Source of the DNA: an uncultured Atribacterota bacterium
Lineage (GTDB): Bacteria; Atribacterota; Phoenicimicrobiia; Phoenicimicrobiales; Stramentimicrobiaceae
Reading direction: 5' to 3'
Assembly (NCBI GenBank): GCA_964525625.1
Contig: CAZGKY010000001.1
Span: 1-57,373, forward strand
Length of the DNA: 57,373 nucleotides
This document shows, in pieces, positions 18,464-37,971 of the stretch. Under the pieces are notes generated by a model that was given only the letters and a program-made list of their open reading frames with translations, ran no database searches and was not told the origin of the DNA. The position numbers and the translations under genes are program-made. The stretch's first letter is position 1. Every line of letters starts with the position of its first letter.

Positions 18464-18472
18464 TCACGGTGG

Positions 18473-18956: not shown

Positions 18957-18998
18957 TCGAGTAGGAGGTAGATGATTAATTCATCTACCGTCCTCTCA

Positions 18999-20839
18999 GT
19001 CGAGTAGCACAGTGCAATTTCACCTCTATGCTCTCACGGAACCGTACGTGAACCTCTCAATTCATACGGCTCTTATCATTCTACCTTATGGTAATATCCC
19101 AAGAGACCAATGTAAAAACATAGCGGGCTCTCTTTGGGCAAGTTTCCTTAACCACTCACTAGCTCTACGTTGATGATTCTTGAAACGCTTGTATTTACAC
19201 ATTGCCCATTTGATCAATCTGCGGTTGACCCAATCCATCGTATATCTGACAGCAGAAAAATTAAATCTTCCAAAGTAGTTCAGCCATCCCCTGATCAGGG
19301 GGCTTAATAATTCCGCCAGCATTTCAATTTTGCATCCTGTCCTAAGATGTATGTTCAAAGCTTTCAGTTTATCCCGAAAGGCTTTCGCTGATTTCCTGCT
19401 TACCGAGGCTAAGAAGTTGAATTGCAGTCTACCCAATCTATCCTTTATGAATATTCTTTTGAATGTGTATCCCAGAAAATCAAACTCCGTATGGGGATAA
19501 TTTTCTGTTCTATCTTTATCCTTACAGTAGATTATCTTGGTCTTTTGGGGATGTAATTCCAGCTTACATTCTGTTAATCTCACCTTCAATGCTGCCAGAA
19601 TTTCTAGCGCCCTTTGTTCAGATATACAGTGTATGATGGCATCATCTGCATACCTCTCAAAGGGAGCATCGGGATAATTCCTGGTTATCCATCTGTCAAA
19701 GGCATAGTGCATAAACAAGTTGGCCAGTATTGGACTTACGACACCGCCCTGAGGAGTACCACTTTTCCTTGCTATTACTTCCTTCGTTTCGGTAATGAAT
19801 GGTGTTTTCAGCCATCTTTCGATATAGAGAATGATCCACGACTGTTGGATATGCTTCCTTACCGCCCTCATCAGCAGTTCATGGTCAATGTGGTCAAATA
19901 GACCCTTAATGTCCAATTCAATCACATAGTCATACCTCCAGCATCTTCTTCTGGCTTGACCTATGGCATCCAATGCTGATTTGTGAGGTCTATAGCCATA
20001 GGAGTCTTGATGGAAGATAGGCTCAATCAGGGGTTCAAGGTATAGATTGACCACCATTTGCGCAACCCTGTCACTGACTGTGGGTATCCCTAACATCCTA
20101 GTTCCTCCTGATTTCTTTGGTATCTGGACTGCTTTTACCGGTGGAGGGAAGTAACTTCCCGAGCTCATTCTGTTCCAGATTTTATACAGGTTTCCTTTCA
20201 GGTTCTGCTCAAATTCTTCTAAATCCTGTCCATCAACTCCACAACTTCCTCTGTTTGCTTTTACCTTTTGATAAGCAGTCATGACTACTTGCTTAGAAAT
20301 TTCATAAGGTTTGCTGTCTTTCATCGGTTCCTCCTGTCTTTTGACAGTTGTCTTTTGAATCCAGCCAAATGATACAATCCCTTTGCTCGGTTGTCATTAC
20401 GGCAACTTCTTCGCTACTACGGATTGTTCCGCCCCTGTACTATACCTCGCTATTTCGGCCTCGCCTTTCTGTGACTTGCGCCTTTTCGCTTATCATTACA
20501 ATACAGGTTCCTGTGTTTCGCAATAGAGCCTGTCGTACGCTCATGCCGTCTTCATACCGGTTGCCAAGTAGACAGCGATCAGGTTTACCTCTACTCTTAT
20601 CCTTAACCAGTGGTGAGAGTTAAGTTTTGACAACATTTTACGTTATCGATACTTCCTAGACGGTTCACTTTCGTTCATCTTCGTACAACTTACATGACTA
20701 TTTTATGAATAGCCTTTTCCTTAATCGCTCACTACCATGCCTCTTAGGCACAGCAGCATTAAGGTTGTTTGGTGAGTTTGCCTGTACAATCCTCATCGAA
20801 GGGCCTTCCTTTATCTCTCTTGCAACTTGCACAGCACAC
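18999..20839 (-). mobile_element. RT-encoding group II intron (inner intron B)
   Basis: 5' GUGUG at 20839. DIII-like ...CCGUAGUAGCGAAGAAG.... RT ORF in domain IV. Domain V GAGCCGUAUGAAUUGAGAGGUUCACGUACGGUUC (19039-19072). DVI has a bulged A, and the intron ends ...CUACUCGAC at 18999. Confidence 0.75.
19086..20324 (-). CDS. Group II intron reverse transcriptase/maturase (no endonuclease domain)
   Basis: 412 aa with GVDG, LGIPTVSDRVAQ, GTPQGGVVSPILANL, YADD and a maturase X-like C-terminus (LIRGWLNYFG). GGAGGAA RBS upstream. Confidence 0.92.
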   Translation of the reverse strand: MKDSKPYEISKQVVMTAYQKVKANRGSCGVDGQDLEEFEQNLKGNLYKIWNRMSSGSYFPPPVKAVQIPKKSGGTRMLGIPTVSDRVAQMVVNLYLEPLIEPIFHQDSYGYRPHKSALDAIGQARRRCWRYDYVIELDIKGLFDHIDHELLMRAVRKHIQQSWIILYIERWLKTPFITETKEVIARKSGTPQGGVVSPILANLFMHYAFDRWITRNYPDAPFERYADDAIIHCISEQRALEILAALKVRLTECKLELHPQKTKIIYCKDKDRTENYPHTEFDFLGYTFKRIFIKDRLGRLQFNFLASVSRKSAKAFRDKLKALNIHLRTGCKIEMLAELLSPLIRGWLNYFGRFNFSAVRYTMDWVNRRLIKWAMCKYKRFKNHQRRASEWLRKLAQREPAMFLHWSLGILP

Positions 20840-21488
20840 CACCACCGTACATACCGTTCAGTATACGGCGGTTCGTTAAGAATAAATTACTTGTGCATGT
20901 CATTCTGTAGAATAATAGAATATGCATTTTCACTGTTTCTTCGGTTATCTGACGCCGAAGGAATACTAAGCACTTTTCCAATATCTGAGGCTTCCAGCCT
21001 ACTCTTTTGGAAATAGCCTTCCTAAGAAGTTGTCTGCTTTAATCGTATTTCTCTCGAGTCCTTCAAACTTCCAAAACCTCTTAACGTTCAGCCCTTCAGA
21101 TAGCACTACTTATCATTGAATGCCATCCTACTATGGCCTCTGCTGACTTCTGACAGTTCAGGCACACATCACTGTGTGGGTTGTTGTCAATCCATATTCA
21201 CAACTTACCTGTCAGACCTCCCCGCTTAAGAACAATAACTTTCGTCTCATGTCACCGCTACATTTACACCGTGGAATTCGGGTAGTGTTGGACTTTGTTT
21301 TGTTAGGCAAACTCGTCCATTCCACATATGCCTTCTATGTAGTTTCTGTTCGACGGTGCAAGACTTTGCCTACAGCTTCCTTCAGATTCCACCTCACGGT
21401 GGACACCCTTGCTGTTTGGCTAATGGTTCCCACTACCAAGCCCATAGCAGACTTTCACTGCCAAGTTATTGCCCATGTCGGGCGAACC

Positions 21489-21842: not shown

Positions 21843-22076
21843 TTAATCTTCATCTTCCCCATCTTCCAACCTCACACCTTGTAGGTAAATCTCGGTAAGC
21901 TCTGTTTGACCAACTTCGGTCAGTTCCACTTCATCTAAGGTTAACGGCCCACAGTGAGGACACTTAATCTGATTTTCAAACTGAGGCCTTCCCTCGACTA
22001 ACTCAAAGCTTATCTTACCTACCTCAAAGTCAAACACCCTTTTACATTCTTTGCATTTAAAGTTAATAAATGGCAT
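21843..22076 (-). CDS. Small zinc-ribbon protein (FmdB-like) with acidic tail
   Basis: 77 aa. CKEC...CPHCG pair of CxxC motifs and an acidic C-terminus (EDGEDED). Confidence 0.45.
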   Translation of the reverse strand: MPFINFKCKECKRVFDFEVGKISFELVEGRPQFENQIKCPHCGPLTLDEVELTEVGQTELTEIYLQGVRLEDGEDED

Positions 22077-22086
22077 AATATCTCCT

Positions 22087-23305
22087 ATGGAAATTCTATC
22101 ATCTCAACCTAAAATTTCAATAAAGAAAATTTTTAAAGATTACTGGCCAGATTATTTAGCCACTCACCGAGATTCTATCCTGGACTATATCATCATCACC
22201 ATAAAGAAGATGCTTTCCGGTAGAGATCCAGAAAAACTTGGTTATCATAAGTATGCCTGTCCCGAGCATCCCGACCAGTATATAGTTGTTCCACATTCCT
22301 GTAAATCTCGCCTCTTAATACCTGTGGCAGGATTCTTACCGATAAATGGGTAAAAGAGGTTAATTCCCTCTTCCCCGAGCACCCTTTCATCATCTTTGTT
22401 TTACCCTTCCCAGAGAGCTAAGAAAGCTTCTAAAAGATTATAGGTTTTTATTTGACTGTCTTTTTACCGCCTCCAAAGAGACAGTTCTCTCTTTTTGTAA
22501 AGAAAATTTCTTCCGGCAATTGTTTCTTCTCTTCATACCTTGGGAGGAGACCTTAAAGATAATCCTCATATTCATATGCTCATCTCTTCCGGTGGTATTG
22601 ACCTAAAAGTAAGAAGACAGAATAGATGGAAAGATCACTCCTTTTTCCCCTTTAAGATGCTTCATAAAAGAGATAGGTTTCTTTTGGTCAAACATCTTAA
22701 AGAGAAAGTATTACCCACTATCTTAAAGAGCATCCTGAAGAAAAAGGGGAGTTAAAAGTATTTAAAGCCAAACAAGTTTTGGATGCTTTCTGTAACCCTT
22801 TCTTAAAGATAAACTGGTATGTTTATGACTCAACTGACTTAGAGCCAGAAAGGTTTACCGTAGGCTATATTCTTCGCTACGCAAAAAGGCCAGCCACCCT
22901 TAGCTGAATGTAGAATCTGCCAGTATGGAGAAATAAAAGGAAAAGAAGGTAGCTGGGTAACTTTTACTTATAAAGAAAGAGAAGCTTCTGAAGTAAAATA
23001 TACTGTCTTAAGTGGAAAAATTCATTACTCTCCTCATTCAACATATCCTTCCTCCCAATTTTAGGGTAGTGCGTTACGGTGGTCTTTTATCAAGTAGGCT
23101 TAAGGATAGATATGAAAAGATAATCCACAGGCTTTCTAGATGTGAGGCGGAAAGAGAAAAACTTAAAGGGTGGAGAGCGAGACAGATTCTTTTTACCGGA
23201 AAAGACCCCCTAATTTGTCTTACTTGCGGAAATGAGATGAAACTGGTAGAAGTTGCCTTTCTCTCTTCTAAAGAGGGGGAAATGGTAGTTTATGAACCTC
23301 CTTAG
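22087..23305 (+). pseudogene. IS91-family (Y2/HUH rolling-circle) transposase pseudogene, multiply frameshifted
   Basis: Three frames are needed. They carry a zinc-binding-domain-like YACPEHPDQYIVVPHSCKSR, then PHIHMLISSGGIDL, then LPPNFRVVRYGGLLSSRLK...CLTCGNEM. Confidence 0.6.
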
Positions 23306-23546: not shown

Positions 23547-24830
23547 TTATCTTGCAAGATTAGGAATGAACATAATTATATCTGGCAATAATATTAATAA
23601 AATCATTATTAAAGTAGAAAGAAATATAAAAATAAGCAAATTAATGTTTATTACTTCTTTAACATCTGCATTACATAGTCCTGCTGCAACAAATAAATTC
23701 ATTCCTACAGGAGGGGTCACCATACCTATCCCAAGATTAACAATCATAATAATACCAAATACAATTGGATCTATTCCAAAATATTCTGCAATTGGAGCAA
23801 GTAATGGAGAAAGAATAATAATTGCTGGAGGAGTATCCATGACCATTCCAACAATAAACAATAAAAACATCACAATAAGCCAAAATTTGCTTGGACTATT
23901 GCAAATTCCTAAAATATATTCTGTAATTCTTGTAGGAATATTTTCCATTGCTAAAAAATGTGCAAAGAAAGAAGCTGTTGCAATAACAAACATAATCATG
24001 GAAGAAGTTAAAACAGATTCTTGTAAAATCTTAAAAATATCTTTTAAAGCTAAATCTCTATAAACAATTAAACTAACAAGCAATCCATATAAAACAGCGA
24101 CTGCAGCTGCTTCAGTAGGAGTAAATATACCTCCATATATTCCACCCAAAACAATAACAGGCATAAATATTGCCCAAATTGCACCTTTAAAAGATTCCCA
24201 AAGATCTTTTAAAACAAATTTTTTTCTTTTAATTACATCTTTATGTCTTACACCATAATAAATTCCATAAATTGACATGCCTCCAGCAAGTATAAAACCC
24301 GGAATAAACCCCCCTAAAAACATATCTCCTACAGAAACGCCTCCAGTTGAAAGTCCATATAATATCATTGGTATACTAGGGGGAACTATAACTCCTAAAT
24401 ATCCACAAATAGCAATCGCTGATAATGAAAAGTTTAAAGGGTATCCTTCTTTTTGTAACGAGGGCAACATAATTGTTCCTATTGTTGCAACAGTAGCTAC
24501 AGCTGAGCCAGAAATCGCTCCAAAAAATGCAGCTCCAAAGAATACCACTACAATTAAACCTCCCGGAAGCCATCCAAATAATGAATTTACAAAATTTACT
24601 AAACGTCTTGAAAGGCCACTTCTACCAAGCAAACCTCCAGCAATCAAAAAAAATGGAATCGCCATTAATCCAAATGAATTAGTTGCACCAAAAAACTTTT
24701 GTACAACCATAGCCATATTAAAGTCTCCAAATATTAAAAATGCAAAAGTTGCACTAATTCCTAAAGATAATGCAATTGGAACACCTATTAATAACAGCGT
24801 AAAAAAAATACCAAAAACAGTTGCTATCAT
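23547..24830 (-). CDS. dctM: TRAP transporter large permease subunit (DctM family)
   Basis: 427 aa, highly hydrophobic with about 12 TM segments. Typical DctM N-terminus and GGF/GIYGGIFTPTEAAAV motif. Confidence 0.88.
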   Translation of the reverse strand: MIATVFGIFFTLLLIGVPIALSLGISATFAFLIFGDFNMAMVVQKFFGATNSFGLMAIPFFLIAGGLLGRSGLSRRLVNFVNSLFGWLPGGLIVVVFFGAAFFGAISGSAVATVATIGTIMLPSLQKEGYPLNFSLSAIAICGYLGVIVPPSIPMILYGLSTGGVSVGDMFLGGFIPGFILAGGMSIYGIYYGVRHKDVIKRKKFVLKDLWESFKGAIWAIFMPVIVLGGIYGGIFTPTEAAAVAVLYGLLVSLIVYRDLALKDIFKILQESVLTSSMIMFVIATASFFAHFLAMENIPTRITEYILGICNSPSKFWLIVMFLLFIVGMVMDTPPAIIILSPLLAPIAEYFGIDPIVFGIIMIVNLGIGMVTPPVGMNLFVAAGLCNADVKEVININLLIFIFLSTLIMILLILLPDIIMFIPNLAR

Positions 24831-25716: not shown

Positions 25717-26244
25717 CTATTCTTTAAAATTAAAATTATTGTAAAAAACCATTAAAGCTCGAATAGTACAAAATATAAAGCCTACTACAAGAGGAACATA
25801 AACATACCACATGGGGACTAATAAAGCAGGCGATATTTGGTTCGTCGACTTTACAAATAAACAAAAAGAAATGGAGCAATAAGCAAAATAAGCGTATGCA
25901 ATAATTTCGATTAAAGATCTTAAAGTATTAAGTACATTTTTAAAAAATTTATTAGGCACGGCATCTAATAAAAAAGTAAATCCTAAATGTTTTCTTTGTT
26001 TAACACCCATACTAATCCCTATATAAATTCCTGTTATCATTAGATATCTTGAAGCCTCTTCTACCCACTTAAAGGGAATGTGTAAAATAAATCTTGATAT
26101 AACCCCTGCTAATACTAAACAAGTCATTGAGACAAAAGCAAAAGTAGTAATAACATTTTCAAAAATAGACATCCCTTTATCTAATAAAATAATATACTTT
26201 TCTATCTGTGTTTTCTCTAAATATTTTAAAAACTCTCTCTTCAT
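25717..26244 (-). CDS. dctQ: TRAP transporter small permease subunit (DctQ family)
   Basis: 175 aa with four predicted TM helices, lying between dctP and dctM. Confidence 0.8.
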   Translation of the reverse strand: MKREFLKYLEKTQIEKYIILLDKGMSIFENVITTFAFVSMTCLVLAGVISRFILHIPFKWVEEASRYLMITGIYIGISMGVKQRKHLGFTFLLDAVPNKFFKNVLNTLRSLIEIIAYAYFAYCSISFCLFVKSTNQISPALLVPMWYVYVPLVVGFIFCTIRALMVFYNNFNFKE

Positions 26245-26447: not shown

Positions 26448-27461
26448 TTAATATTTTGTATTTTTTACTTTGTTTATTTCTTCTTGCGTAAAATACTTCG
26501 GTATTAGCATAGGATATGCCTTCTCCTCCATAGTTTTCATCCATTGTTTCTTTTCTTCTTCAGTGTATGTAACAATATTAACACCTTCTTTTCTCATCCG
26601 TTCAATCATTTTACCTTCTTGATAAGCAGTATAAGCTCTCATAAAATCTCTGGCTTCAATAGCGGCTTTTTCCATAGCGTCTTGAATATCTTTCGGTAAT
26701 TTATCCCATTTTATTTTACTTATAGTAAGAGGTAATGGAGAATAAGTAACATTTAATCTAGAATAATTATTGGCAACTGTATATATTTTATTAAAGTAAA
26801 CAGTACAAATTGGCAAAATAGTTCCATCTACAGTTCCATTCTGAATTGCAACAAATACTTCGCCCCAAGCCATGGGAACAGGATTAGCACCTAATGCAGC
26901 AATCCAAGTGGTTGTTATTGGTGTTTCCATACAGCGAATAGTCCTACCAACTAAATCTTTAGGCTCTTTAATAGGATTACCACTATTAATAAAGCCAAAA
27001 AATCCGCATTCCCAAAAAGCTAAACCTACAATTCCATAATTTTCCAAGCTTTTTAGCTTCTGCTGTCCAAATTCACCATCTAATACTGCATAAGCATGTT
27101 GTTTATTTTCAAATAAAAAAGGCATATCAAATATTGCATAGCTAGGATCAAAATTAACTAATGGAGAAGTAGTGCTGCAAGTCATATCAAGAGTTCCCAT
27201 TTGTAAACTTTCATACATTTCTCTCTCGCTGGGAGATAATTGACCACTAGGATAAATTTCTATTTTTACTCTACCATTTGTATATTCATCTACAAGTTGA
27301 GCAAAATATTCTGACGCAATTTGATAAGGATGTTCTGGATTTAAACCATGAGACAATCTAAGTTTCCAAGACTCTTCATTTGCAATACCATTAAGACCCA
27401 TTGAACATAAGATAAAACATAATAATGTTATGACTATTAAATTCTTCAATATTTTTTTCAT
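26448..27461 (-). CDS. dctP: TRAP transporter substrate-binding protein (DctP family)
   Basis: 337 aa with a signal peptide/TM at the N-terminus. DctP-like LRLSHGLNPEHP...FDMPFLF. Confidence 0.88.
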   Translation of the reverse strand: MKKILKNLIVITLLCFILCSMGLNGIANEESWKLRLSHGLNPEHPYQIASEYFAQLVDEYTNGRVKIEIYPSGQLSPSEREMYESLQMGTLDMTCSTTSPLVNFDPSYAIFDMPFLFENKQHAYAVLDGEFGQQKLKSLENYGIVGLAFWECGFFGFINSGNPIKEPKDLVGRTIRCMETPITTTWIAALGANPVPMAWGEVFVAIQNGTVDGTILPICTVYFNKIYTVANNYSRLNVTYSPLPLTISKIKWDKLPKDIQDAMEKAAIEARDFMRAYTAYQEGKMIERMRKEGVNIVTYTEEEKKQWMKTMEEKAYPMLIPKYFTQEEINKVKNTKY

Positions 27462-27691: not shown

Positions 27692-29078
27692 TTTTTAGTT
27701 GAAAATATTTGAGTGGCTCTCATCAAACTGCTACCCTATGCCACTAATACGGCAGTCTCTATATTTTCTTCTGCCTCAATATTCTTGAGCACTTCTGGAA
27801 TAAAGGCATATCCTTTAACTCTCCTAAATCTCCTCTCAGCATCTAGGAGAGCAGAGGCCAGCCACCTCTGCATCTTCTTACTTCCTCTATATCTCTTTAC
27901 TCTACTCTCGGTATCTCTCACCATAGAAAACATACTCTCTATAGGATTGGTGGAATGTAAAGTCTTCCTCAGTAGAGCAGGAACTTTCAAGCGAGGTAAG
28001 GTAAGTATCTCTTCTAGAGCCTCTAATAGAGAATCTGCTGCAGATTCATTTATATCTCTTAGCCATTTCTCCATCTCCAGCAACATCTGCCGAGCATCAT
28101 CGTAGCTATTCTGTTCTAAAGCATTCTTAAATCTGAAATGGGCTTCTTTTCTATACTTTTTAGCCAAATGCTGCTGGATGTTTCTATCTTTATGGATAGT
28201 ACAACGTTGATGGATTAGTTTTACCAAATCTATCTTTTAAGGCTTTAATTATTCCTTTGCCTCCATCGGTTACCCAGATGATCTTATTGGAAAGTGGTAA
28301 TCCCCTCCTCTCTAAATCTCCCAATAGTTCCTCAGCTAGCTCCTGGTTCTCAGTGGCTCCTTGCCAAAAACCTAAAGCCATCTTTCTCCCACTTAGGTCT
28401 ATACCTAAAGCAATGATGAATACTTCTCCTCCTCGATGAATGGTATCTAAGAATAGGGCAAAAGGTTTAAAATCTTCTAAGTTTCGTTCTTTGAATTCTT
28501 TTAACTTTCTAGCAGTAACTTCGATGATATGCCGGGATACGGAAAAGGCTGATACTCCGAAAGCTTGAGCAGCATCTATTATTGTCTCTTGATACTTTTG
28601 ACAGGATATACCACTCAGTATTTTGGTTAATAACTCCTCCGAGAACTGTTCTGGTTCTTTTAGTTTCTGGTAACTCTTAAGTGGTATCTCTGCGCTTCTA
28701 CTTCTAATCCGAGGACGATTTACTTTAATCTTCTGGTCTCCTAGATAGACTAAGCCAGTTTGACTTGCCCATTTGTAGATACCTGGATTAGTAGGCTGAT
28801 AGTCAGGACCTGCTATTTCCTCCCTTTCTATATACATAATGGCCTCTACTACCATTCTACCCAATTCCCTCATCAGAGAATCAACTTCTTGCTTAGCAGT
28901 TACCAAGTATCCTATACATCCCCCTCACCATCTCTTCTTTCCCATAAACTTCTTTCATTTTGGCTATTGACTTTTTCCTCTTTTTGGTGTTTCCTTTCTA
29001 TTAAATACTTTTTCTCTATTTACACTACTACGTGGATTATCCCACGGGGAGCCACTCTTTTCAATTTCAACTAAAAAT
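27692..29078 (-). mobile_element. Second IS256-family element with frameshifted transposase (27736-28906)
   Basis: IRs TTTTTAGTTGAAA...GAGTGGCTC at both ends. The transposase is split into two overlapping ORFs (28190-28906 and 27736-28227). The C-terminal part has CTIHKDRN...STNPIESMFSMVR. Confidence 0.75.
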
Positions 29079-29138: not shown

Positions 29139-29855
29139 TTATGGATAAACATTGTGCGAAAATACTTTAAAATCATGTCCTGGTAATATAAAGTCAGCTG
29201 CTTTTTCTAGCTTTGTATAACTTTGATAATACTCTTCAATATTAATATGTAGACCATTGATAAGTCTAGGTTTTGACTCCCAACATTTATAAATAGGAAC
29301 TAAATCTCCTGTTATTGCGTATTTCCCTTCCTTGGTATTTACTAAAACAGTCTGTGATCCGTTTGTATGTCCAGGTGTTAAAATGACAGATAGGCCATCT
29401 ATTATTTCAACATCACCATCAATTATCTCGTATTCTGTCTTAAACAATACTTGTAAATTATAATATTTCTTGTGAATCTCAATAGGAGTAACAGCATATT
29501 GCATTTCCCTTTTTTGGACATAAAATTTATTTGCATTTTTAAATAAATTATTATTCCCAGAATGATCCCAATGCAAATGAGTTAATATAACAATAGTAAT
29601 TTCTTCTGGTCTTATTCCAATATTAAATAATGCTTTATCTAAGAACTGATCTTGAGTTTGACTATAAGGCATGTGTTTTATCCCATCAGCTGGTTCACCT
29701 GCTGTATCTACAATAATTTTTTCCTTTCCGTCTGAAATATACCACGATATCAACGGTTGCCTTAAGGGAATCCCTGGATTATATTGATAAGCGACTCCAG
29801 AGCTATCTCTAACCACTTCACCCACTAAAAGTGGATAAATTGAAAATTTGTTCAT
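29139..29855 (-). CDS. MBL-fold metallo-hydrolase, N-acyl-homoserine-lactonase-like
   Basis: 238 aa with the HLHWDHSG (HxHxDH) motif and a downstream TPGHT. Overall size matches AiiA-type lactonases. Confidence 0.75.
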   Translation of the reverse strand: MNKFSIYPLLVGEVVRDSSGVAYQYNPGIPLRQPLISWYISDGKEKIIVDTAGEPADGIKHMPYSQTQDQFLDKALFNIGIRPEEITIVILTHLHWDHSGNNNLFKNANKFYVQKREMQYAVTPIEIHKKYYNLQVLFKTEYEIIDGDVEIIDGLSVILTPGHTNGSQTVLVNTKEGKYAITGDLVPIYKCWESKPRLINGLHINIEEYYQSYTKLEKAADFILPGHDFKVFSHNVYP

Positions 29856-30028
29856 ATTTTCCTCTCTTTTTATTATTATTCAAAAATCCAAAACATAATG
29901 AATTTATGATTATCATTTTGAATATATTATGTCACCTCTATCTTCTTCAAGCTACTAAATACATTATTATCCTTAAATAAGGTTTATTTTTAAGAACGGC
30001 TAAAAATAATTCGCTTAACAAACAAGCT

Positions 30029-31300
30029 CTATAAGTGTTTATTTTTGACCACCCCAATGATACCTTCATTGATTAGTTTATTTATCTTCTCATCTGAGTA
30101 ATCAAGCTGTTTTAAAATTTCTACAGTATGTTCACCAAGTAATGGCGCTCTATTATAAACTTTAGGCTTTGTTTTAGAAAACTTATAAGGTGTTCCTGCA
30201 ATTTTAACTTTCTTCTTGGTAGTAGGATCAGCTTCAACTTCTACTAACATTTCTCTGTCTAAAACATGATCTGAATGAAATAAATCTTCTGCAGTATTAA
30301 CTTGGGCTACAAGACATCCATTTTTTTTAAGTCTTTCTACAACTTCTTGTTTTGTATATTTTGTGGTCCAGTTTTCAATAATCTTATCCAATTCTTCTCT
30401 GTGAGCAACTCTCTTGTCTTTATCTGTAAACCGACTATCTTCTTTTAGTCCTGGAATATTTGCTGCCTCTACAAATCTTTCCCAATATCTTTCAGGAAAA
30501 CTTGCGAGTACAATTGCACCATCACTCGTGTGATAAAGGCTATAAGGATGATATAAAGGATGATTATTTCCAATGGGTTTTGGTGAAACTCCAGTATATG
30601 AATATTGGAATAGAATACGTTCACAAAGTAACATTGTTGAATCAAGCATTGCAATATCAATGAATTGGCCTTCACCAGTATTTTTTGCATTTATTAAACC
30701 TGCCAACAAAGCTGTAATCGCTAATGTCCCTGGAAATATATCTCCAACACCTACACCAACTTTATATATATCTCCTTTTGGAGAACCTGTTACACTCATT
30801 AAACCACTCTCAGCTTGTATCATCATGTCCACTGTAGGTCTACCTTCAAATCTAGAAGGTACAACTCTATTAGTGCCATAACCACTTATTGAGACATATA
30901 CAAGCTTTGGATTGATCTTCCTAATGGTATCATAGTCTAATTTAAACTTTATCATAATTTCTGGAGTCGCAAAATTTAATATTATAGCATCAGATTCCTT
31001 TGCTAGTTCCTGAGCTATTTTTTGTGCTTCAGGCATCTTTAAGTTCAGTACAATACTTTTTTTATTTCTATTAATACTACTAAAAAAACCACCTAAATTA
31101 CTATCCTTATTAGTATTATCTAAGTATGGACCTAGTAGTCTACTTGTATCACCATCAGGGGCTTCCACTTTTATAACTGTCGCACCTAGATCTGCTAAAA
31201 GCATTGATGCAAAAGGACCAGCTAAAGCCCTAGTGAAATCTAAAATCTTTACTCCGTTTAATGGTCCAGATCTTTCATCGGTTTTTATTTTTGAAGTCAT
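30029..31300 (-). CDS. Family III (CaiB/BaiF) CoA-transferase
   Basis: 423 aa. GPLNGVKILDFTRALAGPFASMLLADLGATVIKVE is a hallmark N-terminus for this family. Confidence 0.88.
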   Translation of the reverse strand: MTSKIKTDERSGPLNGVKILDFTRALAGPFASMLLADLGATVIKVEAPDGDTSRLLGPYLDNTNKDSNLGGFFSSINRNKKSIVLNLKMPEAQKIAQELAKESDAIILNFATPEIMIKFKLDYDTIRKINPKLVYVSISGYGTNRVVPSRFEGRPTVDMMIQAESGLMSVTGSPKGDIYKVGVGVGDIFPGTLAITALLAGLINAKNTGEGQFIDIAMLDSTMLLCERILFQYSYTGVSPKPIGNNHPLYHPYSLYHTSDGAIVLASFPERYWERFVEAANIPGLKEDSRFTDKDKRVAHREELDKIIENWTTKYTKQEVVERLKKNGCLVAQVNTAEDLFHSDHVLDREMLVEVEADPTTKKKVKIAGTPYKFSKTKPKVYNRAPLLGEHTVEILKQLDYSDEKINKLINEGIIGVVKNKHL

Positions 31301-31490
31301 GGCTCTTACTTTTAAGTATAAACATAAAGAATAAATACTATATAAATTTAACTTATTTAAAGTAAATTAACCAAACATGCATGATTATAATTAATCATAA
31401 TTTACTTTATTTACTCCTTATATATTATACTTTAACTACCTCCTTTATATATTCTATTTATTATTCTTGACTGAATTTCAATACTTATTT

Positions 31491-31916
31491 TTAGCAATTA
31501 TCTAATTCAAATTCTATCAAAACTGTTCCATCTAGAGTTTCACAAAAACCAATTAACAATGGAGAATCGAAATGCGCTTTAGAAACATCTTCCTCAGACA
31601 TTCTACCAGTTATAATATGACCTTCTGCCAATTTTGCTATAATTACAGTATAAGGAACATCAGGATAAGGCTTTAAATACACCTTATGGAAGGTTACCTT
31701 AGACCATAAAGTTGCTTTACCAGAACATTCGATCCACTTAACATTATTAGAAAGGCATTCGATGCAAACTGGAGATGGTGGAAATTGAGTATGTCCACAA
31801 TCGTTACACTTCTGAATCATTAACTTCTTATTTTGCAAACTTTCCCAAAATACTTTCTCAAAATCTGTAATTATTGGCAATAAAGAGCTTATATTTTCAC
31901 GTAGTGAATCTTTCAT
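31491..31916 (-). CDS. DUF35 (Zn-ribbon + OB-fold, acyl-CoA-associated) protein
   Basis: 141 aa with the rubredoxin-like CNDCGH...PSPVCIEC followed by an OB-fold-like segment. It lies 11 nt downstream of the thiolase-like gene. Confidence 0.8.
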   Translation of the reverse strand: MKDSLRENISSLLPIITDFEKVFWESLQNKKLMIQKCNDCGHTQFPPSPVCIECLSNNVKWIECSGKATLWSKVTFHKVYLKPYPDVPYTVIIAKLAEGHIITGRMSEEDVSKAHFDSPLLIGFCETLDGTVLIEFELDNC

Positions 31917-31927
31917 ATTTTCTCCTC

Positions 31928-33088
31928 CTATATTCTAGTAAAAATATGGCCCGAAACAATAGGGGCAGCACATATATAGAGAGATAATTTTGCATTAGCA
32001 ACTTGTCGGTTACCACATTCATGTCTCAATTGTCTAATGCACTCTACTTGATGATTAAAGCCTTGCATATATGATTCTGAGGTATGTCCACCACTAGTAT
32101 TAACTGGCCTTGGGCTTTTACCCAATGTAATTCCAACATTATCTATATATTCTCTAGCACCACCACGCTCACATAAACCAATTCCTTCCAAAGAAAACAT
32201 AACTGTTGCTGTAAAATTGTCATAAATCTGTAGATTATCTAAATCTGTAGGTTTTATACCGGCAACAGTATAAAGATCTTTTGCCACTTTACATAGAGAA
32301 TTATAAAAGAAATCTTCCTTCAGATAAGTAGAACTCATATCTCCACAACTACTTGTGGCAATCATTGCAACTACCGGTTTTTTAAGATCTTTTGCACGTT
32401 CTATTGACGTTAAAATTAGAGCAACTGCACCATCATTAATTAAACAATAGTCATATAATCGCAAAGGCTCAGTAATATAACGAGCACTTATATATTCATC
32501 CATAGTAATCGGCTCTTTAAAACAACTTTTTGGGTTTAAAGAAGCATGATATCTATTTGAAATCGCTATCTCTGCAAGGTATTTTTCAGAAACATTAAAT
32601 TCATACTGATAACGAGCAAACATGGCTGCAACTTGTGCACCAGGAGAAGTCATGCCATGAATAATTCCATAAGGATCTGCACTATCTCCTGTACTTCCAT
32701 AATTATATTTCCCAGTACGACTATTATTAGCATAAATAACTAAAACATTTTTTACTATACCAGCATTTATTGCCATAGCAGCATACTGTAACGCTAACCC
32801 ACTCATCCGTCCTGAAGATTCCAATCCATTTACTAATCTGGGTTGCTTTATCCCAACCTTGTAGCAAAAATACTCATATTGCCTAACATCCCTGACACAA
32901 ATAACCCCATCAATATCATCTCTTTCAAGTCCACAGTCATCTAATGCGTTCTTAAAAGCCTCGGATGCCATTGCATAAGGATCTCTAGGATAATGGAGAT
33001 TACGTTCCTGATATAGTTTTCCATAATCAACATCTCCTACTCCAGCTATAGCTACTCCTTTTGGAAATATTCTACTCATTTGTGACAC
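31928..33088 (-). CDS. SCP-x/Ltp2-like thiolase-fold protein lacking the nucleophilic cysteine
   Basis: 386 aa with EPLRLYDYC, IYDNFTAT and NTSGGHTSESYMQGFNHQVECIRQLR. The position of the thiolase Cys reads GLESSGRMSGLAL, with Gly or Ser in its place. Confidence 0.7.
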   Translation of the reverse strand: MSQMSRIFPKGVAIAGVGDVDYGKLYQERNLHYPRDPYAMASEAFKNALDDCGLERDDIDGVICVRDVRQYEYFCYKVGIKQPRLVNGLESSGRMSGLALQYAAMAINAGIVKNVLVIYANNSRTGKYNYGSTGDSADPYGIIHGMTSPGAQVAAMFARYQYEFNVSEKYLAEIAISNRYHASLNPKSCFKEPITMDEYISARYITEPLRLYDYCLINDGAVALILTSIERAKDLKKPVVAMIATSSCGDMSSTYLKEDFFYNSLCKVAKDLYTVAGIKPTDLDNLQIYDNFTATVMFSLEGIGLCERGGAREYIDNVGITLGKSPRPVNTSGGHTSESYMQGFNHQVECIRQLRHECGNRQVANAKLSLYICAAPIVSGHIFTRI

Positions 33089-33216
33089 CTCCTCTTATAT
33101 TATTTTCAATTAACTCTTTTCGTAGCGGTCATATTTATAAATAATTGATCATACTTAAAATTTATTTTATTTTTTCAATTTATTTTTCAATTCTTTTTCT
33201 ATACGGATAAATCGAA

Positions 33217-33321
33217 TCAAGATCCCTTGGCAATCTCCACAAGATAGAGAGGATCAGGGGATGACAAATAAAGACCTAAAATTGGGCCTTCTTGATCAAA
33301 TAACTCATTAAAACTTTTCAT
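33217..33321 (-). pseudogene. Relic of an HpcH/HpaI-family aldolase (N-terminal 34 codons only)
   Basis: MKSFNELFDQEGPILGLYLSSPDPLYLVEIAKGS* fits the family N-terminus (F..L....p.iG.w....p...E.la.aGfD). The next residues, FD.., are out of frame. Confidence 0.35.
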
Positions 33322-33323
33322 AT

Positions 33324-33965
33324 TTACCTTCCTTTAAAATAATCATAAAATGCTTTAACAAATAACATTCCTGCAGCGGCTCCTGGATCTTCTATTCCTT
33401 TGGATTTTTCTCCATACCATTTTGCTCTGCCATATTTTGAAACTAAATCTTTCGTGGCTTCAAAACCACTCTTTGCTTTTTCGTAAGCTTCTTTAAAACT
33501 ATCTTTTAAATTTCTATTTTTAAGAGCAGACTCTTTCAAAGATTCTGCTGCAGGATATAAAGAATCAACCAATGTTTTTTCACCAAATTTAGCTATTCCC
33601 GTCTCGATGATTCTGTTAACAAACTCCGTGAAAAATAATGATAAATCTGAAAGGCTAACTTCTGTTTTATCATTTAAAACCATTCCAGCTTTTATCAGTC
33701 CATCAGCAATAAGGGTACCCACTGTTGAAGGGGAAGCTTCAGCCAAAGCCATACCAGCTTTAACGATAACCTTTCCAATTTTATCTTCAGTATAGTTATG
33801 CAAAGCGTCCTCAACCTTGGTAAAGCCGTTTACCATAGTTAATCCGAGATCACCATCACCAATTACTGAATCTAAATTAAATAAAAAGTCCTTATTTTCA
33901 ATCATTACATCCTTAATTTTTGAAAATATCTCCCTTATTTCTTTACTATTTATATATTCCTTCAT
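33324..33965 (-). CDS. dhaL: Dihydroxyacetone kinase subunit L (ADP-binding)
   Basis: 213 aa with GDGDLG and DPGAAA motifs. Confidence 0.88.
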   Translation of the reverse strand: MKEYINSKEIREIFSKIKDVMIENKDFLFNLDSVIGDGDLGLTMVNGFTKVEDALHNYTEDKIGKVIVKAGMALAEASPSTVGTLIADGLIKAGMVLNDKTEVSLSDLSLFFTEFVNRIIETGIAKFGEKTLVDSLYPAAESLKESALKNRNLKDSFKEAYEKAKSGFEATKDLVSKYGRAKWYGEKSKGIEDPGAAAGMLFVKAFYDYFKGR

Positions 33966-33978
33966 GTTATCCCCTTTT

Positions 33979-34986
33979 CTAAAGTTGTGCTTGTTGGAAA
34001 AAAGGTGTCTGAGCAGGCTTCTTTAACAAATTTTTTAACTCATTATCAAGTTTAAATAGCGATATAGACATTCCAGCCATTTCCATAGAGGTGGCAAATT
34101 CACCAATATAAGGATGGTATATTTTTATTCCCTTTTCCTTTAATATAGAAGCAACTTTTCTAAACACGATATATAGTTCTTCTAAAGGAGTCGCACCTAA
34201 TCCATTAATAAGAACAGATACTTCATCATCTGCTTCAAATGGTAAATCTGTTAATATTGAATTCATCATCTTTTCCACTATCTCGTTAGAAGGCATAAGT
34301 GTACTTCTGCCCATACCAGGCTCACCATGTATTCCAATACCTATTTCCATTTCATCTTCGCCAACTTCAAATGTAGGCCTACCCATTTCAGGGATGATAC
34401 AGGGAGATAGACCTACTCCCATTGTTCGTACGTTATTATTGGCTTTTTTAGCAACTCTTTTTACTTCCTCAAATGACTCCCCTTCTTCAGCATAAGCACC
34501 TGCTATTTTATATACATAAAAAATCCCGGCAATACCTCTTCTATTTTTTTCTTTTCCTTTAGGTGAAGAAGCTATATCATCAGTTACTATAATCTGATCA
34601 ACTTTTATATTTTCCATACTAGCTAGTTCAGAAGCCATTCTTGAATTCATTATATCACCACTATAGTTTCCAAAGATATGCAGAACCCCATTACCATTAT
34701 TAATTGCTTTTGTAGTTGTAAACATTTTATTAGCGCTAGGAGAGGCAAAAACATTTCCTACAGCACAGCCATCCATCATTCCTTTACCCACATACCCTAA
34801 AAATAAGGGTAGATGTCCAGAACCTCCACCGGTTAAAAGTCCTACTTTACCAGGTCTAATATTATCTGAACGGATTATACATCTTAAATCATCATCTATA
34901 CTTTTTAGCTGATCAGGATGTGCCGCTAAAATTCCTTGTAGCATTTCATCAACAAAATTTTTGGGGTCATTTATTAGTTTTTTCAT
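33979..34986 (-). CDS. dhaK: Dihydroxyacetone kinase subunit K (substrate-binding)
   Basis: 335 aa with KKLINDP, GGGSGHLP and GNVFASPS. Confidence 0.9.
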   Translation of the reverse strand: MKKLINDPKNFVDEMLQGILAAHPDQLKSIDDDLRCIIRSDNIRPGKVGLLTGGGSGHLPLFLGYVGKGMMDGCAVGNVFASPSANKMFTTTKAINNGNGVLHIFGNYSGDIMNSRMASELASMENIKVDQIIVTDDIASSPKGKEKNRRGIAGIFYVYKIAGAYAEEGESFEEVKRVAKKANNNVRTMGVGLSPCIIPEMGRPTFEVGEDEMEIGIGIHGEPGMGRSTLMPSNEIVEKMMNSILTDLPFEADDEVSVLINGLGATPLEELYIVFRKVASILKEKGIKIYHPYIGEFATSMEMAGMSISLFKLDNELKNLLKKPAQTPFFQQAQL

Positions 34987-35243
34987 TTAAAAATTTTTCC
35001 TTTCCAACTAAATATTGCTATGAATATAAGAAAATAAAGATAAACCATTTTATTTATTCAAAAATTTACTTAATTATTTTTTATAGAAAACCAACCTTAC
35101 TAAAAATTATTAAATTCCAATATAGACAGCAAATATTTAATTTAAAATAAATATATACTTGAGTAAATTTAAACAAAGGTCAAACATAAGAAACAGAAAA
35201 AAAATTATTTTCACATCCTTTGTTTACTCTTTATTAGGTTTAA

Positions 35244-35723
35244 TTAAACATATTTATTTTCTTTAAGAGCATATTCTTCTCTAAATTCGATAACAATACC
35301 CCCAGGAGTAGTATCAAAATAACACCAACGTTCACCCTGATAGACTGCAGCTACAAGTAGATTATGACCCTGAGCTTTGAATATATCTACCATTTCATCA
35401 TAATTTGATACACCGAATGCAAAATGATGTATGCCTTCGCCTTTTTCTTTAATAAATTTAGCCCAAATTGATTTATCATCCATAGGCTGTAAAAGTTCAA
35501 TAAAAGTAGGGCCAAATTTTATTAATACTATTCTTACTCTGAATTGTTCACCTGCCATAAGATCTTTTGTTTCTGGTTTATAATCATTAATAATTTGGCC
35601 ACCAATATGCCATACTGAAGATAAAAAATTTACTGTATTTTCAATGTCTTTTACAGCAACGCCAATATGACTTAAATTTGTAAGCGGAATCTTATTTAAT
35701 TTTAAATCTTTATTATCTATCAT
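35244..35723 (-). CDS. VOC (glyoxalase/epimerase-fold) family protein
   Basis: 159 aa. LSHIGVAVKDIE...GEGIHHFAF, a paired beta-alpha-beta-beta-beta metal-ligand pattern like methylmalonyl-CoA epimerase. Confidence 0.7.
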   Translation of the reverse strand: MIDNKDLKLNKIPLTNLSHIGVAVKDIENTVNFLSSVWHIGGQIINDYKPETKDLMAGEQFRVRIVLIKFGPTFIELLQPMDDKSIWAKFIKEKGEGIHHFAFGVSNYDEMVDIFKAQGHNLLVAAVYQGERWCYFDTTPGGIVIEFREEYALKENKYV

Positions 35724-36114
35724 TTATATATTCCCCCATTTTTGGTGTTTAAAAATTTTTAATTAAAATATAGACCATTTTCTATTTGTCTTTATTAACT
35801 ATAATGCTTCGTTGAAAATATTTTAGTAATCTTCAAATTTTAACTCAATTGTTTTTTGATTTTAATAAAGCTTTAATAGCAAGCTAAAATTGCGTGCTAC
35901 CGTAATAATATTATTCAATATTTATTCAATTATATAAAAATATGACTAACGAAATTCGCTTTTCATTATATGAATTATTTATACTACTAATATAGTTAGA
36001 TGTCAATATGCTGACCGAGAATTTTTATCAATAATTCTATATATGGATGAACATTTGGAAAATAAAATGGACAATTTACCTTAATAGATATATTTTTTCC
36101 TTTAGTATTAGCTT

Positions 36115-36320
36115 TAATCATAAACCATCATTTTACACATCTTCTTGAGATTCTATGCAATACACATCAGTCTAAATTCATCCTTTACTTTCTCCTGTAA
36201 CCTTAAGAAGAAATGACGATATCCCAGATTGTATTTAAGTTGCCCAAAGAAGGGTTCGATAGTTCAAAGATGTTGCAGATATTTTTTATGTCCAATTTCA
36301 GTCTTCAAAGTGTATTGCAC
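36115..36320 (-). pseudogene. IS1182/IS5-type transposase C-terminal relic
   Basis: The minus frame reads IEPFFGQLKYNLGYRHFFLRLQEKVKDEFRLMCIA*NLKKM, which is the conserved C-terminal block of this family. Confidence 0.55.
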
Positions 36321-36399
36321 CCTACTCATTGGACATCTTTTAAAAAATAAAACTTCCGGTATAATGAAATAACCAAGAAAGATGAGAAATAACTTAAGT

Positions 36400-37130
36400 G
36401 GCAATGGGGCTTCAAAAATAATATACCAAAGAACAAAAATAAGAGCTAGTCCAAGCCTTGCTAAACGGTAAACTAATCTCAGGCTTAGGAGGCATTATCT
36501 AAAGATATATCTAAATGGTAATAATGATAACCATGAAATAAAACGGTTACGGATACAGATTGCCAAGATAGAACAGATGGCCGAGAAATTAACCATTGAG
36601 AACTATATATTTTAAAAAAAGAAAGTTCATTCATCATCACCGGTCCTTATTTCGCGCCATCTAAAAAGAATGCAAATAAATTGATATTAAAAAATCAACA
36701 TTCTATTATCAACTCAAAGACAATTAGGGAAAAAGCAACACGCGGCTTCCCTCAAAGAGAAGATCAAGAGATCAAGCAGATTGCCTATCGCTATCCCTAT
36801 TTACGGTTACCGGAGAATCACTGCACAGTTACCAGGGAAAAGATCAAAGTAAATCATAAACAAACAGGTACTTAAAATGATGCGCCACTGGGGATTTAGG
36901 CAAGCATCAACCAGGTCTGGTGTAGTGATATTACCTATATCAACATTCTTTCCAGCTTTGTCTACCTGGTTGTCATTATAGGCATTTATTCTTGCAAGAT
37001 AGTAGGCTATGCTAACTGCCGTATATTCCAGATAACTGGTAACAGCTACCGGATTAAAAATAAATAAAGGATAAAAATTCTTGATTGGAGGTAAAATTAT
37101 GTATAATGTACTTAGTAGAGTCAAATAAAA
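36400..37130 (+). pseudogene. IS3-family transposase relic (orfA tail plus orfB head, frameshifted)
   Basis: Frames give ...RLRIQIAKIEQMAEKLTIEN... (leucine zipper) and ...YGYRRITAQL...VNHKQ..LKMMRHWG.., interrupted by stops. Confidence 0.5.
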
Positions 37131-37212
37131 ACTGAAATCAATAGCCAGGATGATAATGCTTTAAAATTATTTTTTAATTCAGTAAATAAAATAAATTTTT
37201 TTCTATTAATTC

Positions 37213-37971
37213 TTAATTTATATATCCTAATCTTTTAGAGGCTTCTTTTGCGCTTTTTTTCACTATTTTTGATAATTCATCTATTCTATTATCTGTAATT
37301 GATGAAATATGACCAGCTATATTAACTGAAGCAACGACTTTGCCATTATAATCGAAAATTGGTGCTCCAATACATCGATGACCAATAGCATACCATTGGT
37401 CATCCATTGCATATTCTTTTTCTTTCACTTTTTTTAATTCCGTTCTTATTTGAGTTTCATTCTTTAGTGTATATTCTGTATATTGGATAAAATCAATTTT
37501 GCTTATTATTGAATTCAATTGCTCTTCATCTAAATAGGCTGCCAAAACTATACCTGCTACACAACAATTGATATCAACTATAGCTCCTATTCCTGGTACA
37601 TTAATTAAATTATCGTGTTTTTTAATTACATCTAAAAACAACACTTTCCCTTTATAAAGTACACCTAATTCAACAATCTCTTTAGTTTCTTCTGCTAAAT
37701 TTTCTAATATATCTTTTATTTCATTTCTAACGTCTAATTTTGATAATATACTAGTGAAAAGATTCAAAATTTTTAAATCTAGTTTCCATAAATCTTCTGC
37801 TTCATTCCTATATTTATATACATATCCTAAATCCATTAATGTATTTAATATTCTATAAATTGAGGATCTAGAAATATGTGTTTCCTTGAAAATATCCTCA
37901 ATAGATAACGGTCCGAATAATGAAAGTTTCTCTATTATCATTATTCCTCTAGTCAATAAATTTTCTTTCAC
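37213..37971 (-). CDS. IclR-family transcriptional regulator
   Basis: 252 aa with an N-terminal wHTH (LSIEDIFKETHISRSSIYRILNTLMDLGYV) and a C-terminal effector domain. Confidence 0.88.
   Translation of the reverse strand: MKENLLTRGIMIIEKLSLFGPLSIEDIFKETHISRSSIYRILNTLMDLGYVYKYRNEAEDLWKLDLKILNLFTSILSKLDVRNEIKDILENLAEETKEIVELGVLYKGKVLFLDVIKKHDNLINVPGIGAIVDINCCVAGIVLAAYLDEEQLNSIISKIDFIQYTEYTLKNETQIRTELKKVKEKEYAMDDQWYAIGHRCIGAPIFDYNGKVVASVNIAGHISSITDNRIDELSKIVKKSAKEASKRLGYIN

Follow-up and report, generated by a model that had tools for sequence, protein, structure and literature searches.

A candidate coenzyme A-dependent retro-aldol pathway for lactone-forming polyhydroxy acids in a genomic island of an Atribacterota bacterium

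What might a thiolase-like protein that lacks the thiolase cysteine be doing beside a dihydroxyacetone (Dha) kinase, a coenzyme A (CoA)-transferase and a lactonase-like hydrolase? The question is raised by a gene cluster at positions 29139–37971 of a 57,373-nucleotide stretch of DNA (contig CAZGKY010000001.1 of assembly GCA_964525625.1; hereafter the window) from an uncultured Atribacterota bacterium. Genes were called from open reading frames (ORFs) with Pfam and NCBIfam profile matches and PDB sequence matches; the eight intact genes listed for the cluster in an earlier note on this DNA, as well as the DctPQM genes of a tripartite ATP-independent periplasmic (TRAP) transporter, are present at full length, all on the minus strand. 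To our knowledge, Ltp2-type thiolase-fold aldolases have hitherto been known solely from bacterial steroid side-chain degradation. The earlier note knew of no characterised pathway with this gene combination, and our full-text searches of the literature likewise found no account of it or of a CoA-dependent retro-aldol cleavage of sugar acids.

We lean, by a little, towards reading the cluster as a redox-neutral pathway in which a lactone-forming polyhydroxy acid, most likely a sugar or deoxy-sugar acid, is broken down by CoA-dependent retro-aldol cleavage, with confidence in any single substrate well below that in the general mechanism. This mechanism, which the earlier note had put forward, is well supported by comparative genomics. 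Gene identities, the pattern of catalytic residues, the predicted fold and the conservation of linkage were observed here; the reactions, like the substrate and the phosphoryl donor, are all predicted.

The thiolase-fold protein and its DUF35 partner

The predicted retro-aldolase (31928–33088; Thiolase_C_1) had been described as Cys-less and Ltp2-like, and the description holds in both respects. Its top PDB sequence match is the Ltp2-ChsH2(DUF35) complex (6OK1, E=1e-48), its best NCBIfam match is “lipid-transfer protein”, and an AlphaFold model (pLDDT 80.7, pTM 0.86) points to an SCP2-thiolase-like fold, for which Foldseek ranks 6OK1 first (TM 0.82–0.83), ahead of Sal, SCP2-thiolases, BbsB and PhlC. 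Tyr289 (in YDNF) and Tyr340 (in SESYMQG) align to Ltp2 Tyr294 and Tyr344, respectively, and both are kept in all 119 homologues that were checked for motifs (47–84% identity). The region of the thiolase nucleophile, residues 91–97, reads SSGRMSG; G-R-[MQ]-S-G is found in 118 of the 119 homologues, and a Cys occurs within this stretch in one. In Ltp2 itself, Tyr294 of the YDHF motif acts as base and Tyr344 as acid, and the nucleophilic cysteine is absent (PMC12329534). The residue pattern supports a catalytic make-up like that of the Ltp2 retro-aldolase and not that of a thiolase.

The aldolase matched 2018 proteins at E<=1e-40; the paired-Tyr signature is present in each of the 119 that were checked. 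Among 100 fetched loci, the signature GR[MQ]SG / DYC / YDNF (few YDSF) / xYMQ persists down to about 37–40% identity, below which YD[A/S/C]F / xxHMY / DCC is found instead. Genomic contexts were analysed for the clade at 40% identity or more; relatives at 30–36% identity have other active-site motifs. By these motifs, the protein belongs to a discrete clade that would work in the manner of Ltp2 without being orthologous to it.

Next to the aldolase gene lies that of a DUF35 protein (31491–31916; zf-ChsH2 E=1e-11, OB_ChsH2_C E=8e-7) with a Cys4 zinc ribbon (C-x2-C-x10-C-x2-C) and an OB fold. The two genes adjoin in all orthologous loci, and the DUF35 protein is expected to be the structural partner of the aldolase. 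The pair thus resembles Ltp2-ChsH2(DUF35) of Thermomonospora curvata and its relative Sal-Shy(DUF35) in having an SCP2-type thiolase fold without a nucleophilic Cys, paired tyrosines at matching positions and a DUF35 partner with a Cys4 zinc ribbon, which is obligate in Ltp2 and Sal. The predicted reaction class is also that of Ltp2, the cleavage of a 3-hydroxyacyl-CoA into a carbonyl compound and a short acyl-CoA. Unlike Ltp2, however, the protein carries YDNF in place of YDHF and shares only 27–28% identity with it, and its DUF35 partner is free-standing, whereas that of the Ltp2 system is the C-terminal domain of a MaoC hydratase. Steroid genes, the MaoC hydratase (ChsH1/ChsH2) and ChsE dehydrogenases are not near the core; the neighbours of this clade are lactonases, carboxylate transporters and triose kinases, and its hosts include strict anaerobes.

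Weak family-level matches to BbsB and BbsA, together with the presence of PhlC, MucABC and BbsB among the structural neighbours, would fit a different reading of the pair as a true thiolase or a Claisen-type acyltransferase (BbsAB- or PhlABC-like) acting on a 3-oxoacyl-CoA or an aromatic acceptor. This is scarcely credible to us: the thiolase Cys position holds no Cys but lies in GR[MQ]SG, the catalytic pair is that of Ltp2 and unlike that of BbsB or PhlC, the scores of BbsB and PhlC are far under that of Ltp2, and a 3-hydroxyacyl-CoA dehydrogenase is absent from the core clusters.

Recurrence of the core and its link to Dha kinases

Orthologues at 40% identity or more, collected from a genome scan, a metagenome scan and exact-protein look-ups, lie in about 12 independent contexts, which share a core of aldolase, DUF35 protein and family III CoA-transferase. 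These come from Atribacterota, a metagenome-assembled genome (MAG) labelled Betaproteobacteria, Synergistales, Oscillospiraceae, Peptococcaceae, Salirhabdus, Microbacterium and metagenomes. Steroid, aromatic and mevalonate contexts, in which the earlier note would have seen a refutation of its proposal, were rejected for the clade at this identity; what the clusters of these unrelated taxa repeatedly hold are lactonases, carboxylate transporters and a Dha kinase.

The lactonases beside the core belong to at least three unrelated folds. A metallo-beta-lactamase (MBL) lactonase is found in the window and in the related loci L002, L016 and L023, an SMP-30/SGL beta-propeller lactonase in L001, L003, L025, L026, L032 and L036, and a phosphotriesterase-like (PTE) lactonase in Microbacterium ulmi (L008); the amidohydrolases of L012 and L014 may be further lactonases. 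Many types of carboxylate transporter occur as well (DctPQM, TAXI-TRAP, TctC, AAE and MFS), and enzymes that handle stereochemistry come from three unrelated families: MmgE/PrpD-like proteins at eight loci, all scoring far under the PrpD cut-offs, vicinal oxygen chelate (VOC) proteins in the window and L001, and a nickel-pincer LarA-like protein in L012. Neither in the window nor in the approximately 12 related contexts does a gene for a MaoC/ECH hydratase or an acyl-CoA dehydrogenase lie beside the core, so the substrate probably brings its own 3-hydroxyl, as a sugar acid would.

A Dha kinase stands beside the core in 6 of the 12 contexts and in three architectures, as split DhaK and DhaL (window, L001, L003, L004), as an L-K fusion DAK (L010) and as a K-L fusion DAK (L026). 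The order VOC-DhaK-DhaL-aldolase-DUF35-CoA-transferase is the same in the window and in L001, the MAG labelled Betaproteobacteria. Where DhaK is absent, Microbacterium (L008) has a FucI-like isomerase with an FGGY kinase and Salirhabdus has Aldedh with ADH, modules that are alternative means of aldehyde or aldose disposal; a FucI-like isomerase also adjoins the DAK of L010. Since the combination of lactonase, CoA-transferase, aldolase-DUF35 pair and DhaKL recurs, its linkage is conserved and not accidental.

In L008 (11617–14238), the CoA-transferase is of double length, with 873 residues and two CoA_transf_3 stretches, and a 58%-identical relative is found in metagenome locus L029. The Oscillospiraceae MAG locus L003 has at 6215–8284, past its aldolase-DUF35-DhaK-DhaL-SGL genes, a 483-residue fusion of a KASIII-like protein with a ChsH2 zinc ribbon, followed by a thiolase gene (Thiolase_N), an arrangement that resembles the archaeal 3-hydroxy-3-methylglutaryl-CoA synthase/thiolase/DUF35 system.

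In the window, DhaK (33979–34986; Dak1 E=7e-123) is the substrate-binding subunit of a dihydroxyacetone/glyceraldehyde-type kinase. Its closest solved structure is Lactococcus lactis DhaK (3CT4, E=4e-79), the motifs GGGSGH, NYSGD and GIHGEPG are present, and it scores 398.7 bits against a TIGR02363 cut-off of 406.25. DhaL (33324–33965; Dak2 E=8e-41), the nucleotide-binding subunit, carries the DGDLG motif and scores 144.6 bits against the TIGR02365 cut-off of 138.3. With their Dak1 and Dak2 domains, conserved His/Asp motifs and Mg-binding DGDLG, the two subunits are like those of DhaKLM and of single-chain, ATP-dependent dihydroxyacetone kinases. Unlike the phosphotransferase system-dependent DhaKLM, the cluster lacks DhaM: as the earlier note had observed, no dhaM is visible, there being no EIIA-man domain among the scanned window ORFs (cluster, island and both flanks) or in the related loci. 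This absence is probably a normal feature and not a sign of decay, because the related loci do without DhaM, two of them have a fused DAK, and the nearest DhaKs lie in ATP-binding cassette (ABC) transporter-DhaK-DhaL clusters that also have none. ATP would be the likely phosphoryl donor of DhaKL, given that sister clusters use fused DAKs.

The window DhaK is 54–55% identical to the DhaKs of its sister clusters (L001, L003, L004) and 67–79% identical to those of CUT2 sugar ABC-DhaK-DhaL clusters, which have neither DhaM nor a thiolase-fold gene; DhaKs of other clusters match it at 72–79%. We therefore rejected the idea that it falls in a clade dedicated to aldolase clusters. These identities argue that different DhaK lineages joined the aldolase core on more than one occasion, and such repeated recruitment is stronger evidence of a functional link than simple vertical synteny would be. 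The CUT2 clusters, moreover, suggest that split DhaK/DhaL works without a cluster-encoded DhaM. The nearest relatives of the window DhaK and DhaL, at 67–73% identity, are found in the CUT2 ABC transporter-DhaK-DhaL clusters L097–L100, from Actinobacteria and other MAGs, of which L097 and L098 additionally have BtpA and an FGGY kinase.

The same DhaK relationships bear on whether the adjacency could be fortuitous, with a VOC-DhaK-DhaL module for a triose or erythrulose kinase having come to lie beside a separate aldolase/DUF35/CoA-transferase/lactonase/TRAP pathway in a mosaic island rich in insertion sequences (ISs). The 28.6-kb island that holds the cluster is indeed crowded with IS and group II intron sequences, the nearest DhaK homologues lie in clusters without a thiolase-fold gene, and half of the related loci have no DhaK. 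However, a typical genome has only one or few DhaK/DAK genes, so that finding DhaK or DAK a few genes from the aldolase in six independent contexts, in different phyla and three architectures, is very unlikely by chance; the six-gene order from VOC to CoA-transferase is also the same in the window and L001, where the DhaL-aldolase spacer is about 20 bp. We consider a fortuitous adjacency distinctly unlikely.

Predicted reactions and candidate substrates

In the pathway that we favour, the acid would be imported by the TRAP system and its lactone form opened by the MBL lactonase. The family III CoA-transferase would then charge the acid with CoA, the probable donor being the short acyl-CoA that the pathway itself yields, and the VOC protein (or a PrpD-like or LarA-like enzyme in other genomes) might optionally correct the stereochemistry. 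The Ltp2-type aldolase/DUF35 complex would split the C2-C3 bond of the 3-hydroxyacyl-CoA, with Tyr289 presumably serving as base towards the 3-hydroxyl and Tyr340 as acid towards the enolate. The predicted products are a short acyl-CoA of acetyl- or glycolyl-CoA type and an alpha-hydroxy carbonyl, glyceraldehyde or dihydroxyacetone, which DhaK/DhaL would convert, probably with ATP, to a glycolytic triose phosphate.

The family III (CaiB/BaiF) CoA-transferase (30029–31300; CoA_transf_3 E=2e-112) has SUGCT (9BR7), 4ED9 and YfdE as its nearest PDB entries, and a role in the activation of the free acid may be inferred. The MBL-fold hydrolase of the lactonase subgroup (29139–29855; Lactamase_B E=5e-22) has the HxHxDH metal motif (THLHWDHSG) and matches PDB entries of AiiA at E=4e-19; its best NCBIfam scores, 103 bits for AiiA (cut-off 375) and 92 bits for 4-pyridoxolactonase, are both below cut-off, and it appears lactonase-like without being an orthologue of AiiA, the N-acyl-homoserine lactonase. 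In L002 and L016, its place is taken by orthologues with 59% identity.

The VOC-fold metalloenzyme (35244–35723; Glyoxalase_4 E=1e-13) is an accessory gene product with likeness to methylmalonyl-CoA epimerase. TIGR03081, the family of that enzyme, is its only NCBIfam match, and at 56.4 bits against a cut-off of 114.95 the protein stays below equivalog level; its PDB matches include 3GM5, 3OA4 and methylmalonyl-CoA epimerases, and the H...E/Q...H...E ligand pattern is present. A 65%-identical orthologue takes the same position in L001. The protein could be a C2 epimerase of the acyl-CoA, or else an isomerase or lactonase.

Of the transporter subunits DctP (26448–27461; Pfam DctP E=2e-80), DctQ (25717–26244; Pfam DctQ E=6e-26) and DctM (23547–24830; Pfam DctM E=2e-109), the first has as its nearest solved relatives 4P47, the sugar-acid binding CxaP (7BBR), and binders of erythronate or pantoate (PMC11668362), which lends weak support to a polyhydroxy monocarboxylate.

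Four groups of substrate would fit the proposed chemistry: 2-deoxy-pentonates, giving acetyl-CoA and glyceraldehyde; pentonates, giving glycolyl-CoA and glyceraldehyde; apionate, giving glycolyl-CoA and dihydroxyacetone; and 2-C-methyl aldonates, giving lactyl-CoA and glyceraldehyde. The 2-deoxy-aldonate suggested in the earlier note is one candidate among several, and the sequence data do not discriminate among the candidates, itatartarate included.

The closest pathway, by analogy, is the CoA-bound oxidative route for 2-deoxy-D-ribonate in Klebsiella michiganensis, proposed from fitness data, whose genes encode a CoA synthetase, a 3-hydroxyacyl-CoA dehydrogenase, a thiolase, a CoA-transferase, a glycerate kinase and a lactonase (Price et al. 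2019, PMC6365646). It shares with the pathway proposed here a lactonase, a CoA-transferase, the CoA activation of a deoxy-sugar acid, the splitting of the CoA ester at C2-C3 into a C2 acyl-CoA and a C3 unit, and a kinase leading into glycolysis. The Klebsiella route, however, oxidises the 3-hydroxyl, uses a true thiolase and carries glyceryl-CoA through glycerate to glycerate kinase, whereas the C3 product proposed here is an aldehyde or ketone for a Dha kinase. No 3-hydroxyacyl-CoA dehydrogenase, Cys thiolase or glycerate kinase is found in the window cluster; with a triose kinase replacing the glycerate kinase, the cluster would thus encode a redox-neutral variant of the Klebsiella route. 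The genetic support for that route also means that CoA esters of sugar acids occur in nature.

A second point of comparison is the itaconate/methylsuccinate cluster (Ict, Ich, Ccl) of Pseudomonas and Cupriavidus, which likewise has a family III CoA-transferase, a lyase that cleaves a 3-hydroxyacyl-CoA in retro-aldol fashion, a stereo-isomerase of the MmgE/PrpD family for the free acid, and a small lactone-linked VOC protein (PA0880). The PrpD-family protein of that cluster is a methylsuccinate isomerase (PMC12290011). Its lyase is a citramalyl-CoA lyase of CitE/HpcH type, unlike the thiolase-fold/DUF35 pair, and it has a MaoC hydratase and an acyl-CoA dehydrogenase and no kinase.

This cluster is also a precedent for the main rival to a sugar acid as substrate, in which the same CoA-transfer and retro-aldol chemistry would act on a branched di- or tricarboxylate that carries a hydroxyl, and on its lactone; examples are itatartarate, whose lactone is 2-hydroxyparaconate, and acids resembling citramalate or hydroxycitrate. 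The aldolase would then be a non-homologous stand-in for the CitE/HpcH-type citramalyl-CoA lyase, the products would be acetyl-CoA and a 2-oxo acid (hydroxypyruvate or pyruvate), and the substrate of DhaKL would be hydroxypyruvate or a triose made from it. MmgE/PrpD proteins are known to isomerise free branched dicarboxylates (PMC12290011), and a small VOC protein of Pseudomonas is a 2-hydroxyparaconate lactonase (PMC9875883). In NCBIfam and the PDB, the CoA-transferase comes closest to dicarboxylate enzymes (succinyl-CoA:mesaconate, succinate-glutarate and SUGCT); TctC, AAE (Asp-Al_Ex) and TAXI-TRAP transporters occur in the related loci, and in L012 the core is adjoined by a 2-oxoacid:ferredoxin oxidoreductase resembling pyruvate:ferredoxin oxidoreductase (PFOR). 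On the other hand, we know of no member of the Dha-kinase family that accepts a carboxylated substrate. A neutral aldose would also better suit the FucI-like aldose isomerases of L008 and L010 and the FGGY sugar kinase, LacI-type regulators are found in L001 and L008, and the window DctP is nearest to binders of monocarboxylate hydroxy acids. On balance, we regard a branched di- or tricarboxylate as an unlikely substrate.

In L012, directly downstream of the aldolase core and a TAXI-TRAP transporter, genes for a nickel-pincer isomerase (LarA family, NCBIfam group 22), a ferredoxin and a 2-oxoacid:ferredoxin oxidoreductase follow one another (18308–21152), which hints that this variant uses a 2-hydroxy or 2-oxo acid.

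Several observations weigh against a retro-aldol pathway for a polyhydroxy acid feeding a Dha kinase. The oxyanion-hole His of Ltp2 (His296 of YDHF) is Asn291 here and in all 119 homologues; in Ltp2, replacement of His296 lowers catalytic efficiency only 14-fold (PMC12329534). Related clusters without a Dha kinase exist (L002/L016, L005, L012 and L014), and some features, namely AAE, TctC, the PFOR-like enzyme of L012 and the dicarboxylate-like CoA-transferase, suggest dicarboxylates or 2-oxo acids. The likeness of DctP to sugar-acid binding proteins is moderate (E ~1e-47 to 1e-51). Immediately upstream of the core in L004 (1498–3105) and L014 (8325–9926) lies a gene for an FAD_binding_2 flavoprotein of 533–535 residues, fumarate-reductase or KstD-like, that is without a role in the proposed scheme. 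Lastly, the window has IS insertions between the regulator gene and the operon, between the lactonase gene and the transporter genes, and between DctQ and DctM, so that expression may be impaired.

The genomic island and what the pathway would mean

The host is an Atribacterota bacterium, with a GyrB 92–93% identical to those of Atribacterota MAGs, and the window spans its oriC region, with dnaA, dnaN, recF, gyrB and gyrA on the minus strand and yidC, jag, mnmE, rsmG, parA and parB on the plus strand. The complete cluster is held by a genomic island of 28.6 kb (9511–38121), inserted between hom and gyrA beside oriC. In a close relative (L103; GCA_028717805.1, Atribacterota), whose flanks share about 82% nucleotide identity with those of the window, gyrB-gyrA leads straight on to hom, an aspartokinase gene and asd, with no island, and the breakpoints in the window were set by blastn against this locus. 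The island contains the catabolic cluster, the TRAP genes, a Cat1-type CoA-transferase gene and no fewer than six IS relics, along with group II intron sequences. The catabolic cluster is horizontally acquired.

The earlier note took the cluster to be visibly decaying. The IS630-type and IS256-type relics that it listed are real, but they are confined to intergenic spaces: every catabolic ORF has the same length as its orthologues, so the decay is intergenic. An IS256-family (Transposase_mut) transposase, split in two ORFs covering profile positions 18–248 and 249–376, lies on the minus strand at 27736–28906 between the lactonase gene and DctP, whereas in L002 and L016 DctP directly follows the MBL gene. 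The IS630-type relic (HTH_33 E=5e-7) fills the 886-bp gap between DctQ and DctM. An IS91-type transposase relic absent from the earlier list (22051–23305, plus strand; Zn_Tnp_IS91 E=1e-6, Y2_Tnp E=1e-4) lies where, by synteny, L002 and L016 have an MmgE/PrpD-like gene; a tblastn search using three PrpD-like proteins revealed no PrpD relic in the window.

Six-frame translation with Pfam placed further transposase relics, DDE_Tnp_1_6 on the minus strand (E=4.5e-11) and an IS3-like HTH_21 on the plus strand (E=0.007), between the IclR and VOC genes (35724–37212), where 1.5 kb of IS relics separates the regulator gene from the operon. The regulator (37213–37971; IclR_C E=1e-36, HTH_IclR) has sub-threshold NCBIfam matches to BhcR, PcaR and KdgR and is probably the cluster regulator; other loci vary in this respect, with LysR and LacI types. 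Promoter and terminator scans gave no excess over shuffled sequence, and Rfam reported group II introns only, with no riboswitch upstream of the cluster.

An HpcH-type aldolase relic that had been supposed between the DhaL and aldolase genes is unsupported. The 235-bp spacer (33089–33323, minus strand) holds a 34-codon frame without detectable family similarity (no Pfam match at E<=1, no PDB match at E<=10), and in the orthologous loci L001 and L004 DhaL abuts the thiolase-fold gene with no gene between. The Cat1-type CoA-transferase gene pointed out at 15058–16563 does exist, but it is not part of the system, because it lies in a mobile sub-segment of higher G+C (41–43%) and is absent from every related locus. 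It sits about 7 kb beyond DctM amid IS200, UPF0236 and IS256 elements and group II introns; an IS200 transposase gene (12210–12638), a UPF0236 fragment (12827–13612) and an intact IS256 transposase gene (17125–18372) are its neighbours, and this acetyl-CoA hydrolase/transferase-type gene, with its segment (12210–18372), is probably separate mobile cargo.

Elsewhere in the island, Rfam finds group II intron domains at 18702–21403 (two group-II-D1D4-3, D1D4-1, D1D4-2 and Intron_gpII), which appear to be two tandem intron copies or fragments, with a reverse-transcriptase/maturase ORF at 19086–20324. At the left edge, a 449-residue ORF without a Pfam match (9576–10925, plus strand) is followed by an IS630-like HTH ORF (10983–11423). 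Outside the island, a 722-residue ORF (5226–7394, minus strand) has an N-terminal half of GHMP-kinase (homoserine-kinase-like) type, fused to an ACT-domain aspartokinase; over the homologous DNA of L103, a 406-residue aspartokinase is the only call.

A wider proposal follows the clade beyond this island. The YDNF/SYMQ Ltp2-type clade, widespread from Atribacterota to Actinobacteria, may act on small hydrophilic polyhydroxyacyl-CoAs and, with the CoA-transferase and a lactonase, form an undescribed redox-neutral retro-aldol route from lactones of (deoxy-)sugar acids to a short acyl-CoA and a triose for a DhaM-independent, two-subunit Dha kinase. We offer this tentatively, at somewhat less than an even chance.

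If the pathway is as proposed, it would be a third mode of sugar-acid cleavage beside the dehydratase/aldolase routes (Entner-Doudoroff, Weimberg and Dahms types) and oxidative beta-keto cleavage, and since it needs no redox cofactor, it would suit strict fermenters. The Ltp2/DUF35 aldolase family would extend beyond steroid metabolism, and a large clade whose members are currently called “acetyl-CoA acetyltransferase”, “thiolase family protein” or “lipid-transfer protein” would gain a function, as well as offering biocatalysts that form C-C bonds in hydrophilic CoA esters. DhaM-less DhaK/DhaL pairs would be given a physiological role. Related clusters are present in two cultured organisms, Salirhabdus salicampi (GCA_024259515.1) and Microbacterium ulmi (GCA_039529555.1), which makes the hypothesis directly testable. 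For Atribacterota, of which there are very few cultured representatives, the cluster would represent a horizontally acquired substrate-utilisation trait.

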